Shown here: positions 18,870 to 37,715 of the stretch, piece after piece
Numbering within the stretch: the stretch's first letter is position 1
Layout of the letters: every line of letters starts with the position of its first letter
NCBI GenBank assembly: GCA_902764415.1
Contig: CACWVU010000001.1
Span: forward strand, 67,395 to 131,394
Direction of reading: 5' to 3'
From: an uncultured bacterium
GTDB taxonomy: Bacteria > Verrucomicrobiota > Kiritimatiellia > RFP12 > UBA1067
Length of the DNA stretch: 64,000 nucleotides
The notes under the pieces: model-generated
Told to the model about the DNA's origin: nothing
Databases searched by the model: none
What the model saw: the letters and a program-made list of their open reading frames with translations, nothing else
Made by a program: the position numbers and the translations under genes

Positions 18870-21800
18870 GTGGCCGAGTTTGTACATCTCCACCTGCATA
18901 CCACCTATTCGCTGCTCGACGGGCAGTGCCAGATCGTGCCGCTCGTGAAGAAGGCGCGGCGGCTGGGCATGAAGGCGCTTGCCGTCACCGACCACGGCAA
19001 CCTGTTCGCGCTCAAGAGCTTCTACGACGAGTGCCGGTCGAAGAAGGACAAGGTCTACGGCGAGTTCGCCGGCGCCACGGTCAAGCCCATCCTCGGCTGC
19101 GAGGCCTACGTCACCTCCACCGGCGACTACCTCAGCCGCGACAAGGGCGAGTTCCGCCACCACCTCTGCCTGCACGCGAAGAACCTGACCGGCTACCACA
19201 ACCTCGTCAAGCTGATCTCCGAGGCCAGCGTCAACGGCTTCTACAACCGCCCGCGCATCGACAAGAGGCTCCTCGAGCGCTACCACGAGGGGCTGATGTG
19301 CTCCTCGGCCTGCATCGCCGGAGAGGTGGCGCAGGCGCTCGCCGCGGACGACATGGCCGCCGCGGAAAGTGCCGCGGCCTGGTACCGCGACCTCTTCGGC
19401 GACGACTACTCGCTTGAGGTGATGCTCCATAAGGCGGCGAAGTCCGGCCCGGACGTGCCCGCCTCGGCGCAGCTCGAGTTCACTGACCTCTACGCGCGCC
19501 AGCTCAAGGTGGTCAAGGGCGCGCTGGAGCTGGGGAAGAGGCTCGGGATCCGCGTTATCGCCACCAACGACGTCCACTTCCTCGACGCGGAGGACGACGA
19601 CTCCCACGACATCCTTCTGGCGCTCTCTACCGGCAAGAAGCTATCGGACGAGAAGCGCCTCGTGTACACCGGCCAGGAGTACCTCAAGACGGCGGACGAG
19701 ATGGCGGCGCTGTTCGCCGAGTGTCCGGAGGTGGTGGCGAACACGCTCGAGGTCGCCGAGCGGGTCGAGGAGTACAGGCTCGATGGTCCGCCGATCGTGC
19801 CGAAGTTCGCGATTCCGCCGTCCTTCGGCAGCGAGGCCGACTACGCGAAGCGGTTCGGCGCGGACGCGCTGAAGGCCGAGTTCGACGAGGACAAGGCGGG
19901 CAACTTCGAGCGGCTCGGCGGCTACGACAAGGTGCTGCGGGTGAAGTTCGAGGCGGACTACCTCGCCTCGCTCGTCTGGGCCGGCGCGGCGAAGCGCTGG
20001 GGCGACCCGCTGCCGGACGACATCCGCGCGCGGCTCGAGTTCGAGCTCAGGACGATCAAGCTGATGGGCTTTCCCGGCTACTTCCTCATCGTCTGCGACT
20101 ACATCCGCGCCGCGCGCGAGGAGTGCGGGGTGTGGGTGGGCCCGGGGCGCGGCTCGGCGGCCGGCTCGGCAGTCGCCTACGCGCTCTGGATCACCAATGT
20201 CGACCCGCTCAAGTACGACCTCCTCTTCGAGCGGTTCCTCAACCCCGACCGCATCTCCATGCCCGACATCGACGTCGACTTCGACGACGCCGGGCGCGAG
20301 CGCGTGCTCGACTACGTGACGCGCCGCTACGGAGCCGACCACGTCGCCCACATCGTCACTTTCGGGCAGATGGCGGCGAAGAGCGCGATCAAGGACGTCG
20401 GGCGGGTGATGGGCTACGACCTCGCCGCCACCAACAAGCTCGCATCCTACGTCCCCGACACCCCCAAGATCACCTTCAAGGCGGCGACGAGCCCTACCGA
20501 CAAGCACGGCGAGGCCAACAAGGACTACTCGCCCGACCTGGTGGACGCCTTCAACAGCGCCGACCCGACGGTGCACTCGCTCATGGAGCGCGCCGCCCGG
20601 CTCGAGGGCTGCATCCGCCAGCCCGGCGTGCACGCCTGCGGCGTCATCATCTCGCGCGACCCGATCGTCGAGACCCTGCCGGTGATGCAGACGCCGGAGA
20701 AGGGCGGGAAGAAGAAGCCCGACGGAGAATCTGCCGCGGGCGGCGACAAGCTGCTCACCACCCAGTACGACGGCCATTTCGTGGAGCCGGTGGGGCTCCT
20801 CAAGATGGACTTCCTCGGGCTCAAGACGCTCACGGTAGAGAAGGAGTGCGTCGCGCTGCTGGGCAAGGACAGCCCGCGCGTCCCGAAGGCGATCCGCGGC
20901 GCCGACGGTTTCCTCGACCCGGACAGGATTCCGGACGACGACCGCGCGACCTACGAGCTCTTCGGCCGCGGCGAGACGACCGGCCTTTTCCAGTTCGAGT
21001 CGCCGGGCATGAAGAAGTGGCTCCGGGCGCTCCAGCCCGAGCGGCTCTCCGACCTCGTGGCCATGAACGCGCTCTACCGCCCCGGCCCGATGGAGTACAT
21101 CCCCGACTTCGTCGACCGCAAGCAGGGGCGCAAGGAGGTGGCATACGACCATCCGCTGATGGAGCAGCGGCTCAAGGACACCTACGGCATCACCGTCTAC
21201 CAGGAGCAGGTGATGCTGCTCTCGCGCGACCTCGCCGGATTCTCCCGCGGCGACTCCGACATGCTGCGCAAGGCGATGGGCAAGAAGCTCATCGACGTGA
21301 TGAGCGAGCTGAAGGCGAAGTTCGTCAAGGGTTGCATGGCGAACAAGGCGTTCCGCGTCGGCGAGTGGGAGGACGAGGCGGCGGCGATGCGCCTCGTGGA
21401 GAAGATCTGGAGCGACTGGGAGGCGTTCGCGTCCTACGCGTTCAACAAGTCCCACTCCGTCTGCTACGCGTGGATCGCCTACCAGACCGGCTACCTCAAG
21501 GCGCACTACCCGGCCGAGTTCATGTGCGCGCAGATCTCGTCCGAAATCGGCAACTTCGACAAGCTCCCCGGCTTCGTCGCCGAGGCGCAGGAGATCGGGC
21601 TCGCGCTGAAGCTCCCGGACGTCAACGAGTCCGGCGCGCGGTTCACCCCGACCCGCGACGCGCGCGGCATCCGCTACGGCCTCGGCGGCATCAAGGGCGT
21701 CGGCGCGGCGGCGGCCGAGGCGATCGTCGCCGAGCGCGAGGCGAACGGCCCCTACACTGGGTTCATGGACTTCTGCATGCGCCTCGCGGGGCTCAACCTC

Positions 21801-27135: not shown

Positions 27136-28542
27136 ATGAACGTCTACAACAGCCTCTCCAGGAGAGTCGAGGAGCTCAAGCCCCTCGAGGGTAACGTCGT
27201 CCGCCTCTACACCTGCGGGCCGACCGTCTACAACTTCGCCCACATCGGCAACTTCCGCGCCTACACGTTCGAGGACGTCCTTAGGCGCGTCATCCAGTTT
27301 TGCGGCATGGGCGTGAAGCAGGTGATGAACCTCACCGACGTGGACGACAAGACCATCCGCAACGCCAACGCGAACGGGGTCGCCCTCGGCGACTACACCC
27401 AGACCTACAAGGACGCGTTCTTCGCGGACCTGAAGACGCTCAACATCCAGCCGGCCGAGGTCTACCCGGCGGCGACGGACCACATCCCGGAGATGATCGC
27501 GCTCGTCGCGAAGCTGGTCGAGAAGGGCATCGCCTACCAGAGCGACGACGGTTCGGTCTACTTCAGCGTCCGCAAGTTCCCCGGCTACGGCAAGCTCGCG
27601 CACATCGACTTCGACCACCAGCAGACCGGCCTCAGGTGCGCGGCCGACGAGTACGACAAGGAGAACGTAGGCGACTTCGCGCTCTGGAAGGCGTGGGAGG
27701 AGTCGGACGGCCCCGTCGGCTGGGACTCGCCGTGGGGACGCGGCCGCCCGGGCTGGCACATCGAGTGCTCGGCGATGTCGATGAAGTACCTCGGCGAGTC
27801 GTTCGACCTCCACACCGGCGGCATCGACAACCTCTTCCCGCACCACGAGAACGAGATCGCCCAGGCCGAGGCGGCGACCGGCAAGCCGTTCGTGCGCACC
27901 TGGATGCACTGCGCCCACCTCAAGGTGAACGGCGAGAAGATGTCCAAGTCGGCCGGCAACTTCTTCACGCTGCGCGACCTCGTCGAGAAGGGGTATACCG
28001 GACGCGAGATCCGCTATGTGCTGGTGAACGCCCACTACCGCACGGGGCTCAACTTCGCCTTCAGCGCGCTCGAGGACGCGCGGCGCTCGCTTGCCCGCGT
28101 CGACGAGTGCGTCGACAAGCTCGAGGCGGCCGCGGCCGGTGCCGCGGGCGACCTCGCCGCCGCGCCGGCGTTTGCGGCGAAGTGCCTTGAGGACTTCACC
28201 GCCGCCGTCTCCGACGACCTCAACCTGCCGCGCGGATTCGCCGCGCTCTTCGAGCTCGTGCGCGGTGCCAACGCCGCGATGCAGTCCGGTGGGCTCAAGC
28301 CGGCCGAGGCGGCCGCGGTGCTTGCGGTGTTCCGCCGCATGGACGAGGTGCTGGGCGTGGTGTTCTTCGGCCGGGCGAAGGCCGCCGAGATACCGGCGGA
28401 GGTCCAGGCGCTCGTTGACCGCCGTGCCGCCGCGCGAGCGGCGAAGGACTGGGCGGAGTCGGACAAGATCCGCGACGAGCTCGCCGCCGCCGGCTGGGCG
28501 GTGAAGGACTCCAAGTCCGGCCAGCAGCTCAGCCGGATTTAG
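27136..28542 (+). CDS. cysS: Cysteinyl-tRNA synthetase
   Basis: YTCGPTVY, HIGN, DFALWK, GRPGWHIECSAM, FPHHENE and KMSKS motifs. Confidence 0.97.
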   Translation: MNVYNSLSRRVEELKPLEGNVVRLYTCGPTVYNFAHIGNFRAYTFEDVLRRVIQFCGMGVKQVMNLTDVDDKTIRNANANGVALGDYTQTYKDAFFADLKTLNIQPAEVYPAATDHIPEMIALVAKLVEKGIAYQSDDGSVYFSVRKFPGYGKLAHIDFDHQQTGLRCAADEYDKENVGDFALWKAWEESDGPVGWDSPWGRGRPGWHIECSAMSMKYLGESFDLHTGGIDNLFPHHENEIAQAEAATGKPFVRTWMHCAHLKVNGEKMSKSAGNFFTLRDLVEKGYTGREIRYVLVNAHYRTGLNFAFSALEDARRSLARVDECVDKLEAAAAGAAGDLAAAPAFAAKCLEDFTAAVSDDLNLPRGFAALFELVRGANAAMQSGGLKPAEAAAVLAVFRRMDEVLGVVFFGRAKAAEIPAEVQALVDRRAAARAAKDWAESDKIRDELAAAGWAVKDSKSGQQLSRI

Positions 28543-34081: not shown

Positions 34082-34765
34082 TTGATCGGAAGAGTGATGG
34101 TGCCGCTGGCGGTGGTGGCGGCGGCGATGTCCGGGTGCTGGACGTTCAACGAGTCCGAGTATCCGGTGGAGGCGACGACCGCGGCGGCGACCAACCTCTC
34201 CGTGGCGGTGGTCGGCTACAAGGCGACGTTCACCGACTACGAGCCGGTGACCGGATACTCCTCGGTGTATGTCCCCGGCTGGTACGGCTACCGCTACTAT
34301 CACCCAGGCCACTTCGAGACCGTCGCCTCCACTGCCTACGTGCCGCTCCGGCGCGAGTCCGACGCCTACCTGGTGCGGGCGAAGGAGCGGTTCGAGGGCG
34401 CCGGCTTCACCGTCGGCGCGGCGGTGCCGAAGGTGTCGGTGGAGGTGCAGTTCGCAGGGCCGTTCGACTCGGACGGCGACCTGGGCCGGGCGCTGCTGTG
34501 GTCAGTCGGGACGATCTTCTTCTGCGACTACTCCTCGCAGCGATGGACGGCGAAGCTGACGATCCGCGACAACACCGACGGCAGGCTGCTGCTGCGGCGC
34601 GAGTTCGAGCAGAAGTACGAGGCGAACGTGTTCTCGCCAATTCCGATCTTCGGGCCGGCGTCGTGCGACAAGACCAGCTCGGCGGCCATGCAGTGCTGGT
34701 GCCTCTCGGCGCTCACCGACCGCACCGTCGCCGCCGCCACCGCCTTCCTTGCCGGAGGCAAGTGA
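34082..34765 (+). CDS. Putative lipoprotein of unknown function
   Basis: SD GGAGG; hydrophobic N-terminus with AMSGC lipobox; host-like codon usage. Confidence 0.65.
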   Translation: MIGRVMVPLAVVAAAMSGCWTFNESEYPVEATTAAATNLSVAVVGYKATFTDYEPVTGYSSVYVPGWYGYRYYHPGHFETVASTAYVPLRRESDAYLVRAKERFEGAGFTVGAAVPKVSVEVQFAGPFDSDGDLGRALLWSVGTIFFCDYSSQRWTAKLTIRDNTDGRLLLRREFEQKYEANVFSPIPIFGPASCDKTSSAAMQCWCLSALTDRTVAAATAFLAGGK

Positions 34766-34769
34766 AGTT

Positions 34770-35481
34770 ATGTTTTCGTCGCAAAAGACGCAAATATGCG
34801 ATCGAGACGCGATTGTCGTCGCCTCCCGCTTCGCGGGCGACAATCGGTCTCGCTCGCGGTAATGGGCTGGGTTTGCCGTATCGATGCTGGCGCAGTGTAA
34901 GATCAGCAATTATTGGGAATGAGGACATATGCATCCGCTGTATGAGCAGGCCAATAATCTGACCAAAGAGGTGATAGACGCTGCGATTGCAGTGCATAAG
35001 CATTTTGGCCCAGGGGTGTTGGAATCCATCTATGTTAAAAGCCTTGAGCAGGCGTTGAAGGTTGCAGGCCACAAGGTTGAGCGGGAGAAGACAGTGGAAA
35101 TCTCCTATATGGGCGCCACATTCGAAGAAAAGCTTCGGTGCGATCTTCTTGTCGACGATTGCCTGGTTATCGAAGCCAAGTCGGTCGAAGCTTGTGATCT
35201 TCAGCGATTCCGAATGCAGTTGCTTTCGTACTTGAAGTTGCTCGATAAACCATTGGGATTGGTTATGAACTTCGGCGACGAGCATTTTGGAAGTCATGGG
35301 ATTCGCCGCGTCATACTGAAAGGCGCTGACAAAGGCAACGATTAAAAATGAAATCTAAACAGACTTTCAAATCATCAAAATGTCTCATAGGCCGCGGACG
35401 ATTTCGATTGTCTCCCGCGTCAGCGGGAGACGACGACAATCGGAAATCGGACGCAATATCTGCGTACTTTGCGACTAAAAC

Positions 35482-35483
<2 letters not shown>
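34770..35483. mobile_element. Candidate GxxExxY-nuclease element with ~90-bp structured inverted ends and GTT direct repeats
   Basis: 34770-34859 aligns to the reverse complement of 35392-35483 (about 72/92 by hand). GTT occurs at 34767-34769 and 35484-35486. The interior is AT-richer than the flanks. Confidence 0.7.
34929..35345 (+). CDS. GxxExxY protein (PD-(D/E)XK nuclease-like)
   Basis: HFGPGVLESIY (GxxExxY), RCDLLVDDCLVIEAK (D..ExK), QLLSYLKL and GLVMNF; SD GAGGA. Confidence 0.93.
   Translation: MHPLYEQANNLTKEVIDAAIAVHKHFGPGVLESIYVKSLEQALKVAGHKVEREKTVEISYMGATFEEKLRCDLLVDDCLVIEAKSVEACDLQRFRMQLLSYLKLLDKPLGLVMNFGDEHFGSHGIRRVILKGADKGND

Positions 35484-37715
<2,232 letters not shown>

Follow-up and report, generated by a model that had tools for sequence, protein, structure and literature searches.

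Small palindromic repeats are common in bacterial genomes, and to our knowledge the enzyme is known for very few kinds of them, namely the repetitive extragenic palindromic (REP) repeats with RAYT, the integron attC sites with the integrase IntI, and the IS200/IS605 elements. In the IS200/IS605 elements, the Y1 HUH transposase TnpA reads subterminal imperfect hairpins as single-stranded DNA (ssDNA) on the same strand, and these elements have neither terminal inverted repeats nor an obvious target duplication. Rickettsia palindromic elements and other in-frame palindromic miniature inverted-repeat transposable elements (MITEs) are short palindromes tolerated in frame within protein genes; for such elements, we know of no cognate gene-bearing copy. 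Here, we analysed a stretch of 64,000 nucleotides (hereafter the window) from contig CACWVU010000001.1 of an uncultured Kiritimatiellia bacterium, in which a small cassette carries a GxxExxY nuclease gene between two inverted hairpin ends. Comparison of these two ends with their relatives reveals that the shape of the stems, and not their sequence, is conserved.

Folded alone as ssDNA, each end of the cassette forms a single long hairpin with three stems, a 6-nt one-sided bulge and a 3-4-nt loop (Table 1). All stems that an initial annotation of this DNA had named at both ends are present in the sequence where it had placed them, and folding with DNA parameters bears out the three-stem hairpin proposed for each end (z about -5 to -6). 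Specifically, the folding free energies are -25.0 (+ strand) and -26.0 (- strand) kcal/mol for the left end and -22.2 and -21.4 kcal/mol for the two strands of the right end, the z-scores of the four end strands range from -5.0 to -5.9, and 0 of 200 dinucleotide shuffles fold equally well. Within the window, CGATTGTC..GACAATCG is present as an arm pair at these two ends and nowhere else (expected 0.00); the 2.6-Mb assembly has five occurrences. The GCGAAGC heptamer to which attention had been drawn in the left loop does lie on the - strand at 34828-34834, and GCGNAGC is described in PMC13037366 as a very stable DNA mini-hairpin. However, the heptamer is common in the window (45 matches versus 33.4 +/- 6.0 expected) and is found in only 6 of 46 related ends; it is therefore no feature of the family, and we give it no weight.

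The hairpins are subterminal, each lying just inside an outer terminal inverted repeat. In G112, another genome of the genus, with 94% identity in the flank, the stop codon of the lipoprotein-like ORF (open reading frame) and the start codon of tex stand 2 nt apart with nothing between them, and the 714 nt from 34770 to 35483 of the window are therefore an insertion; the span of the initial annotation, 34798..35450, covers the hairpins and stops short of the element itself. The GC content is 0.44-0.51 within the element versus 0.62-0.73 in its flanks.

A covariance model (R1) built from eight ends finds ends of this kind in 17 of the 117 genomes of the genus, with 67 matches in the 36 sources examined, and most copies of the family are without the gene. 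The set compared here holds 46 curated ends oriented outside-in; opposite-strand self-matches, five truncated ends, two ends with a foreign insert at the tip, exact duplicates and two unrelated repeats were left out. On a MAFFT alignment of the 46 ends, RNAalifold predicts the hairpin unaided, with both sides changed at 7 of 20 pairs. Over a 25-pair structure (1119 cells, 500 shuffles), standard pairs make up 91.1% of the cells versus 83.5 +/- 0.5% in the shuffles, and double-change cells number 74 versus 19.8 +/- 3.9, neither value being reached in any shuffle (0/500), while 10 of the 25 pairs show a double change versus 7.4 in the shuffles (10/500); since the ends are relatives and include orthologues (G112_a = M1; G106_b = M2), these tests overstate independence. 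Controls in which the partners are slid by 1-3 columns are 25-45% paired. The middle stem varies among CGATTGTCG/CGACAATCG, TGATTG../..CAATCA, AGATTG../..CAATCT, AAAATGTCG/CGACATTTT and GATTTGTCG/CGACAAATC, the top stem among CCCGC/GCGGG, CCTGC/GCAGG and CGAGC/GCTCG, and the tip measures 3-4 nt in 13 ends and carries an extension of ~45 nt in 33. The one-sided 6-nt bulge stands on the same side in the 46 ends, and the bulge with its neighbours, TGTCGTCRCC, is retained in 37 of them. The initial annotation had suggested that pairing within each end is preserved while the stem sequence changes, and both RNAalifold and the pair counts agree with it. Its description of the ends as unlike classical terminal inverted repeats does not hold: each hairpin is bordered on its outer side by a terminal inverted repeat of conserved sequence (ATGTTTTN-GTCGCARAG..), of which GTCGCARAG.. 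is retained across the ends of the family alignment, and the bulge itself is a conserved word. The ends thus combine sequence that is read, in the termini and the bulge word, with shape that is kept, in the stems.

In line with the way in which the window copy's ends differ from each other, each of 10 two-ended elements (four in the source genome G000, G112_a, G106_c, G006_a, G013_F, G029_a/G012_a and G013_c/G068_b) has one A-type and one B-type end. The basal stem reads GCGAnCGAGAC or GCGnTCAAGAC in A-type ends and GCGkCCGATTC in B-type ends. All four copies with the gene or a remnant of it, namely that of the window, that in G013:C221 and the remnants in G006:C58 and G068:C57, have the order A end, gene, B end, so that the two types mark the upstream and downstream sides of the gene. 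The G013:C221 cassette is intact and encodes a protein 90% identical to that of the window copy among quite different neighbours. The difference between GAC/GTC and TTT/AAA, which had been counted as a triple compensatory change, is real; since both types are found again in each two-ended copy, it represents a single old event and not three independent ones.

The same architecture accompanies diverged copies of the gene. Protein relatives at 68, 59 and 54% identity (G124, G092 and G093), in which R1 found nothing, have a word-repeat terminus and a long bulged hairpin on both sides, with stems unrelated to those of the window, for example GTTTGTTGCC/GGCAACAAAC and GTGGC-TACGAC-GCTTCGGCC; the folding z-scores of their six ends are -3.9 to -12.9 in five cases and -1.1 in the sixth, and the end hairpins, 60 nt here, reach about 130 nt. 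Across protein identities from 100% to 54%, gene lineage and end architecture remain together, whereas the sequence of the hairpins turns over. In a sample of 400 genomes of the phylum, 22 have a full-length protein relative at E <= 1e-28. We compared the best 120-nt window in each flank with the 5th percentile of 40 control windows, as z-scores, at 20 of 23 loci (L306, L317 and L320 were dropped because contig ends cut their flanks or a stop interrupts the match), and 9 of 20 upstream flanks, 9 of 20 downstream flanks and 6 of 20 loci on both sides fall below it. Phylum loci of the same family have A/B-different bulged hairpins directly inside AAAGCCGCAAAG-type termini. Raw folding energy set the flanks apart from far controls in 0/23 and 2/23 cases, a lack of discrimination due to the GC-rich coding DNA of the controls, and was abandoned for z-scores. 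Within the genus, 69 of 117 genomes hold at least one PF13366 gene, and the flanking inverted repeats exceed the 95th percentile of 200 random controls at 4 of 4 such genes of the source genome and at 15 of 18 in five genomes, nine of the 18 exceeding the control maximum. The arms of GxxExxY cassettes are arrays of 7-9-nt words.

Turnover of paired stems, a variable tip and unrelated hairpins in relatives are what a folded strand can explain and a duplex read at fixed spacing cannot. It might be argued that the palindromes have no function at all, and that they arise and homogenise by template switching in inverted repeats, the compensatory changes being arm-to-arm copying. Such palindromes are indeed unstable, as both hairpins are deleted in an orthologue in G030 and one end in the source genome (M3_B, on contig C31) is truncated, with its 3' arm lost, and turnover at these intergenic sites is fast. 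However, copying of one arm from the other would do away with the bulge and with internal mismatches, both of which are kept on the same side in the 46 ends; moreover, A and B ends remain different in every element, and the same layout with unrelated sequence recurs beside diverged copies of the same gene. We regard an absence of function as very improbable.

It is plausible that the folded ends are recognised, putatively and most likely as single-stranded or cruciform DNA. The hairpins would extrude from DNA as single strands or cruciforms, the folding strand on each side being the one that runs toward the element tip, and the fold would display the bulge word to a nuclease or recombinase acting at the nearby terminus, in a manner functionally akin to RAYT with its REP hairpins or the integron integrase with those of attC. 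With DNA parameters, 34 of 46 ends fold more stably on the tip-ward strand, with RNA parameters the count is 26 versus 14, and G:T pairs number 18 on the tip-ward strand versus 5 on the other, at A and B ends alike. A like skew of G:T pairs and stability is reported for the recombined attC strand in passages of PMC5027507.

Alternatively, the hairpins might serve in RNA, as processing or stabilising stem-loops that insulate the cassette messenger from the host operon. A precedent for processing exists in those 23S rRNA intervening sequences that bear an ORF, as their inverted repeats are substrates of RNase III cleavage. The hairpins fold strongly with RNA parameters (-30 to -59 kcal/mol), the cassette lies between two co-directional genes, and its B hairpin stands downstream of the stop codon. 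Metatranscriptomic contigs of 151-380 nt, at depth 2-4, lie on 34700-35254, with none on 35255-35560, and one of 151 nt spans 34776-34926 over hairpin A at depth 3.8; these contigs carry no strand or transcript ends, and DNA carry-over is possible. On the other hand, seen from the element tip, the bulge has the same side and the same word in both hairpins, so that one transcript would see two different structures, with differing bulge sides and words, yet in neither hairpin is any part better conserved than the bulge word. The tip-ward preference of G:T pairs at both A and B ends would need outward transcription on both sides, the G013 cassette is antisense to both its neighbours, and gene-less copies retain their hairpins within a coding frame. 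Additionally, there is no terminator-like tail (0 T-tail terminators in a scan), and the ends match no Rfam family, the best match being mir-1306 at 19 bits versus a gathering score of 70. A role in RNA therefore appears distinctly improbable to us.

The gene of the cassette matches PF13366 (PDDEXK_3; E 7.8e-30, 104.1 bits vs cut-off 22) and TIGR04256, 'GxxExxY protein' (E 1.1e-31, 109.6 bits vs cut-off 35). G29, E32, Y35, D72, E82 and K84, which make up the GxxExxY motif and the D...(D/E)xK catalytic residues, are invariant across 21 aligned sequences, and as read from its sequence the gene is intact with all predicted catalytic residues kept. The structure of the protein is predicted with a confidence (pLDDT) of 93.3, and the best matches in a fold search are all PD-(D/E)XK nucleases (Z 8.0 to 6.0): a Spirosoma 'restriction endonuclease-like' protein, Cas4 SSO0001, BpuSI, CinB, HsdR and Hjc. 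These neighbours are tied, differing by no more than about 2 Z units, and do not allow a sub-type to be assigned; a sequence search of the PDB gave no match at E up to 1. Passages of PMC8934634 mention GxxExxY only as a domain call, and a table row in PMC3424549 lists the function as 'Unknown'. In the portions of the literature retrieved under these family names, we found no description of the flanks of GxxExxY/PDDEXK_3 genes, and among the excerpts retrieved no published description of a hairpin-ended nuclease cassette.

We propose, with about even confidence, that the folded-DNA ends are acted on by the cassette's own nuclease; the identity of the enzyme is the weakest link of this proposal. 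The nuclease would be the best candidate, acting in trans on the gene-less copies, which persist and spread with both ends. A different enzyme might act on the same folded ends, either a RAYT-like HUH tyrosine transposase or a host-encoded or absent transposase, with the GxxExxY gene as a passenger, for example a selfish or defence-type nuclease. PF01797 (Y1_Tnp) matches are indeed present in 5 of 5 hairpin-bearing genomes asked, the gene is missing from most copies of the family, and REP doublets with RAYT share the doublet layout in passages of PMC3337134. The inner gene may also be interchangeable, given that PF05635 four-helix-bundle genes (G000:C21:4211-4513; G106:C61) lie in like cassettes between inverted arrays of 7-/8-nt words (TTCGTGR; AATTGTGG). 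However, PF01797 does not track the hairpins, being found equally in 5 of 5 genomes of the genus without the hairpin family, no PF01797 match adjoins a hairpin end, and the gene lineage keeps its end architecture across the range of identity given above. Furthermore, the DNA search of 61 relatives reveals no longer element with these ends other than the copies that carry the GxxExxY gene, and an insertion sequence that could be the parent, sharing these ends and encoding a transposase, was found neither in these 61 genomes (DNA) nor in 117 (end model). The element was accordingly not classed as a MITE derived from a known insertion sequence, in spite of its terminal inverted repeats. We consider another enzyme unlikely, and rank action of the cassette's own nuclease on folded DNA ahead of another enzyme, a role in RNA and an absence of function, in this order. 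The broader claim that GxxExxY cassettes form a distinct class of mobile DNA, in which a minimal PD-(D/E)XK nuclease, and not an HUH, DDE or tyrosine/serine recombinase, reads fold-defined ssDNA ends and drives its own and gene-less spread with homing-like entry, is tentative and, in our judgement, rather doubtful.

In the source genome, the PF01797 matches lie at C18:82489-82662, C5:55-228, C53:121-288 and C4:31948-32253; three of them stand at contig ends and are therefore probably repeated.

Several observations weigh against action of the cassette's nuclease on folded ends, in addition to the relatedness of the ends and the single A/B event, which adds no independent changes. The fold matches of the nuclease are generic for its superfamily, Cas4, restriction enzymes and Hjc alike, and nothing links it to the ends beyond co-travel. 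Since unrelated PF05635 genes occupy cassettes of like design, 'cargo' fits the inner gene as well as 'engine'. The strand bias is slight, and in the G122 subfamily it runs the other way; both flanks are structured in only the 6 of 20 phylum-level relatives mentioned above, and many GxxExxY cassettes of other clades have word-repeat arms with no room for end hairpins. The orthologue of the second mnmG copy in G030 still persists with both hairpins deleted and the outer word-repeat termini in place. With regard to movement, the flanks of 15 copies show no consistent target duplication, GTT/GTT being present at the window copy only, a single site; in the assembled contigs, neither an excision product nor a circle junction nor a fresh insertion is seen, and two identical copies in G068 share their flanks and thus represent a segmental duplication.

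Table 1. Features of the hairpin-ended cassette and its borders in the window
Feature	Position	Strand	Details and basis
GTT, possible 3-nt target duplication, left copy	34767..34769	.	GTT again at 35484-35486; G112 empty site AAGTT/GTCC; weak: one site, right flank diverged
Left outer terminus, word-repeat inverted repeat	34770..34797	+	ATGTTTTC + GTCGCAAAAGACGCA; inverse of 35455-35483; limit from G112 empty site
A-type end hairpin	34798..34857	+	basal GCGAnCGAGAC/GTCTCGnTCGC, middle CGATTGTCG/CGACAATCG, bulge TCGCCT, top CCCGC/GCGGG, loop TTC; folding, family alignment, pair counts
Left (A) end, basal arm	34798-34808	+	GCGATCGAGAC
Left (A) end, middle-stem 5' arm	34810-34818	+	CGATTGTCG
Left (A) end, one-sided bulge	34819-34824	+	TCGCCT
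Left (A) end, top stem and loop	34825-34837	+	CCCGC-TTC-GCGGG
Left (A) end, middle-stem 3' arm	34838-34846	+	CGACAATCG
Left (A) end, basal 3' arm	34847-34857	+	GTCTCGCTCGC
Pre-gene spacer	34858..34928	+	GAGGA 5 nt ahead of ATG; own promoter putative; sequence reading
GxxExxY PD-(D/E)XK nuclease gene, 138 aa	34929..35345	+	PF13366, TIGR04256
B-type end hairpin	35394..35454	- (outside-in)	basal CGATTT/AAATCG with outer GCG/CGC, middle CGATTGTC/GACAATCG, bulge GTCGTC, top TCCCGC/GCGGGA, loop TGAC; folding, family alignment, pair counts
Right (B) end, CGATTT	35399-35404	+ strand reading	
Right (B) end, middle-stem arm	35405-35412	+ strand reading	CGATTGTC
Right (B) end, TCCCGC-GTCA-GCGGGA	35413-35428	+ strand reading	
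Right (B) end, bulge	35429-35434	+ strand reading	GACGAC
Right (B) end, middle-stem arm	35435-35442	+ strand reading	GACAATCG
Right (B) end, AAATCG	35444-35449	+ strand reading	
Right outer terminus	35455..35483	-	inverse of 34770-34797; limit from G112 empty site
First ~60 nt of tex beside the element	35484..35543	+	diverged from three close relatives

The cassette stands between a 227-aa lipoprotein-like ORF (no family assigned) and tex, both co-directional with it, and the start codon of tex consists of the last AT of the element and a flanking G. Immediately right of the element, the opening ~60 nt of tex share 43-57% identity with the three closest relatives, against 87-100% for the sequence beyond this tract and for the left flank. 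In the simplest case, the cassette would have entered by homologous recombination from a diverged donor that already carried it at the same place, together with a short stretch of tex. The diverged tract beside the right end might recall the co-converted flank of a free-standing homing endonuclease gene at a fixed site, but the related G013 copy lies at another locus, and no other genome with the window site filled by a hairpin cassette was found. The peptide encoded by 35484-35543 is still tex-like, so that the tract resembles an imported flank.

The same 2-nt gene junction (34766-34769 / 35484 in the window) is empty in G112; in G106 and G030 it holds another repeat family, with AAACTCCGATGG.. 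arms, and in G000 it is occupied by the hairpin cassette. In each of the three filled junctions, the terminal ..ACAT of the element plus G provides the ATG of tex. A consensus scan gave 0 sigma-70-like promoters. In cassettes of the same gene clade in G092 and G093, TGGTATAAT lies 7-8 nt ahead of the ATG, a position just upstream of the start codon that points to a leaderless messenger made from a promoter belonging to the cassette. In the source genome, the three remaining GxxExxY genes (C17:52144-52488, C1:66172-66495 and C1:28797-28934) have inverted arms built from a different word-repeat family each, and that on C17 is surrounded by several foldback units of ~100 nt.

Gene-less copies with the same ends lie on contig C31 of the source genome at 20455-20737, 21142-21367 and 28110-28327, and in these, as in other genomes, the non-autonomous unit consists of two imperfect palindromes in inverted orientation. 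Two of the four copies in the source genome, the first two of these, are in frame within mnmG, whose frame is open over 795 aa. The mnmG gene (C31:20011-22398) has orthologues in 31 of 41 genomes, G000 included, with open frames of 582-858 aa and no stops, and among 12 aligned orthologues the length differences lie mainly at two variable sites. mnmG also has one conserved occurrence of a palindrome, TGTTCCACGTGGAACA, translated as LFHVEQ or VPRGT, of which some relatives have up to five repeats at their variable sites; it stands at about C31:20753- and 21120- (locus L005 about 2254-2270 and 2621-2637), with dnaA nearby (L005 from 4066). We take this palindrome to resemble parS, multiplying inside a gene next to dnaA.

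The places G000:C3:86864-87014, L064 3089-3250 and L006 1606-1696 show a B-type end with a foreign insert of ~70 nt in its tip, the C31 end M3_B without its 3' arm, and a 400-nt flank with 100% identity in G000 and G106. An empty-site reading attempted for two G106 copies was set aside, as the orthologous G000 sites hold other repeats and the limits are unreadable. A search with a 15-mer of the bulge region against 596 Gb of contigs gave, among the matches listed, single matches in unrelated phyla, about what chance would give, and these were not counted.

The GxxExxY family, which is annotated in very many genomes, is here accompanied by ends that keep their shape as their sequence changes. 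These ends offer a testable substrate for the protein: a pair of defined hairpins, a bulge word of 10 nt and, as controls, compensatory variants that occur naturally. If the nuclease does act on the folds, it would represent a new class of enzyme for structure-recognising mobile DNA and would account for the in-frame insertions that essential genes of uncultured gut bacteria contain; otherwise, the family would still be a clean natural case of fold-constrained DNA ends.

Compared with known systems, the cassette shares with REPIN/RAYT a non-autonomous unit of two short imperfect palindromes in inverted orientation, one small nuclease-type gene between such ends, and end types that pair specifically with gene lineages. 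It differs in that its gene encodes a PD-(D/E)XK GxxExxY nuclease and not an HUH/Y1 enzyme, its ends add an outer word-repeat terminal inverted repeat, its hairpins of 60-130 nt have a conserved one-sided bulge, and its copies are not confined to extragenic places, as those in frame inside mnmG demonstrate. Similar to integron attC, as described in passages of PMC5027507, the ends are fold-defined sites with conserved stems, unpaired bases on one arm and a variable terminal structure, and one strand is more stable and richer in G:T pairs (here 34/46 and 18:5), a likeness in working and not in membership. However, the cassette has two inverted hairpins where attC has one per cassette, the feet of its hairpins read GCG..CGC with no GTTRRRY/RYYYAAC boxes, and the cassettes are scattered singly rather than arrayed behind attI; no integrase is seen alongside, although intI was not searched for. 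With IS200/IS605, the cassette has in common the subterminal imperfect hairpins and the lack of an obvious target duplication; its terminal inverted repeats set it apart, and its inverted ends together with the lack of a Y1 gene inside rule out membership. The two in-frame copies in mnmG liken it, by description and not by sequence, to Rickettsia palindromic elements. A small ORF enclosed by inverted repeats is shared with 23S rRNA intervening sequences and PF05635 cassettes; in contrast to the former, the cassette lies between protein genes and not in rRNA, and its ends have their own local hairpins. Taken together, by analogy the cassette would work most like REP doublets with RAYT and attC with IntI, while failing a defining feature of each, namely the enzyme class of the former and the boxes and one-site rule of the latter, and we file it with the elements that join a palindromic repeat to a cognate gene, as a new variant.

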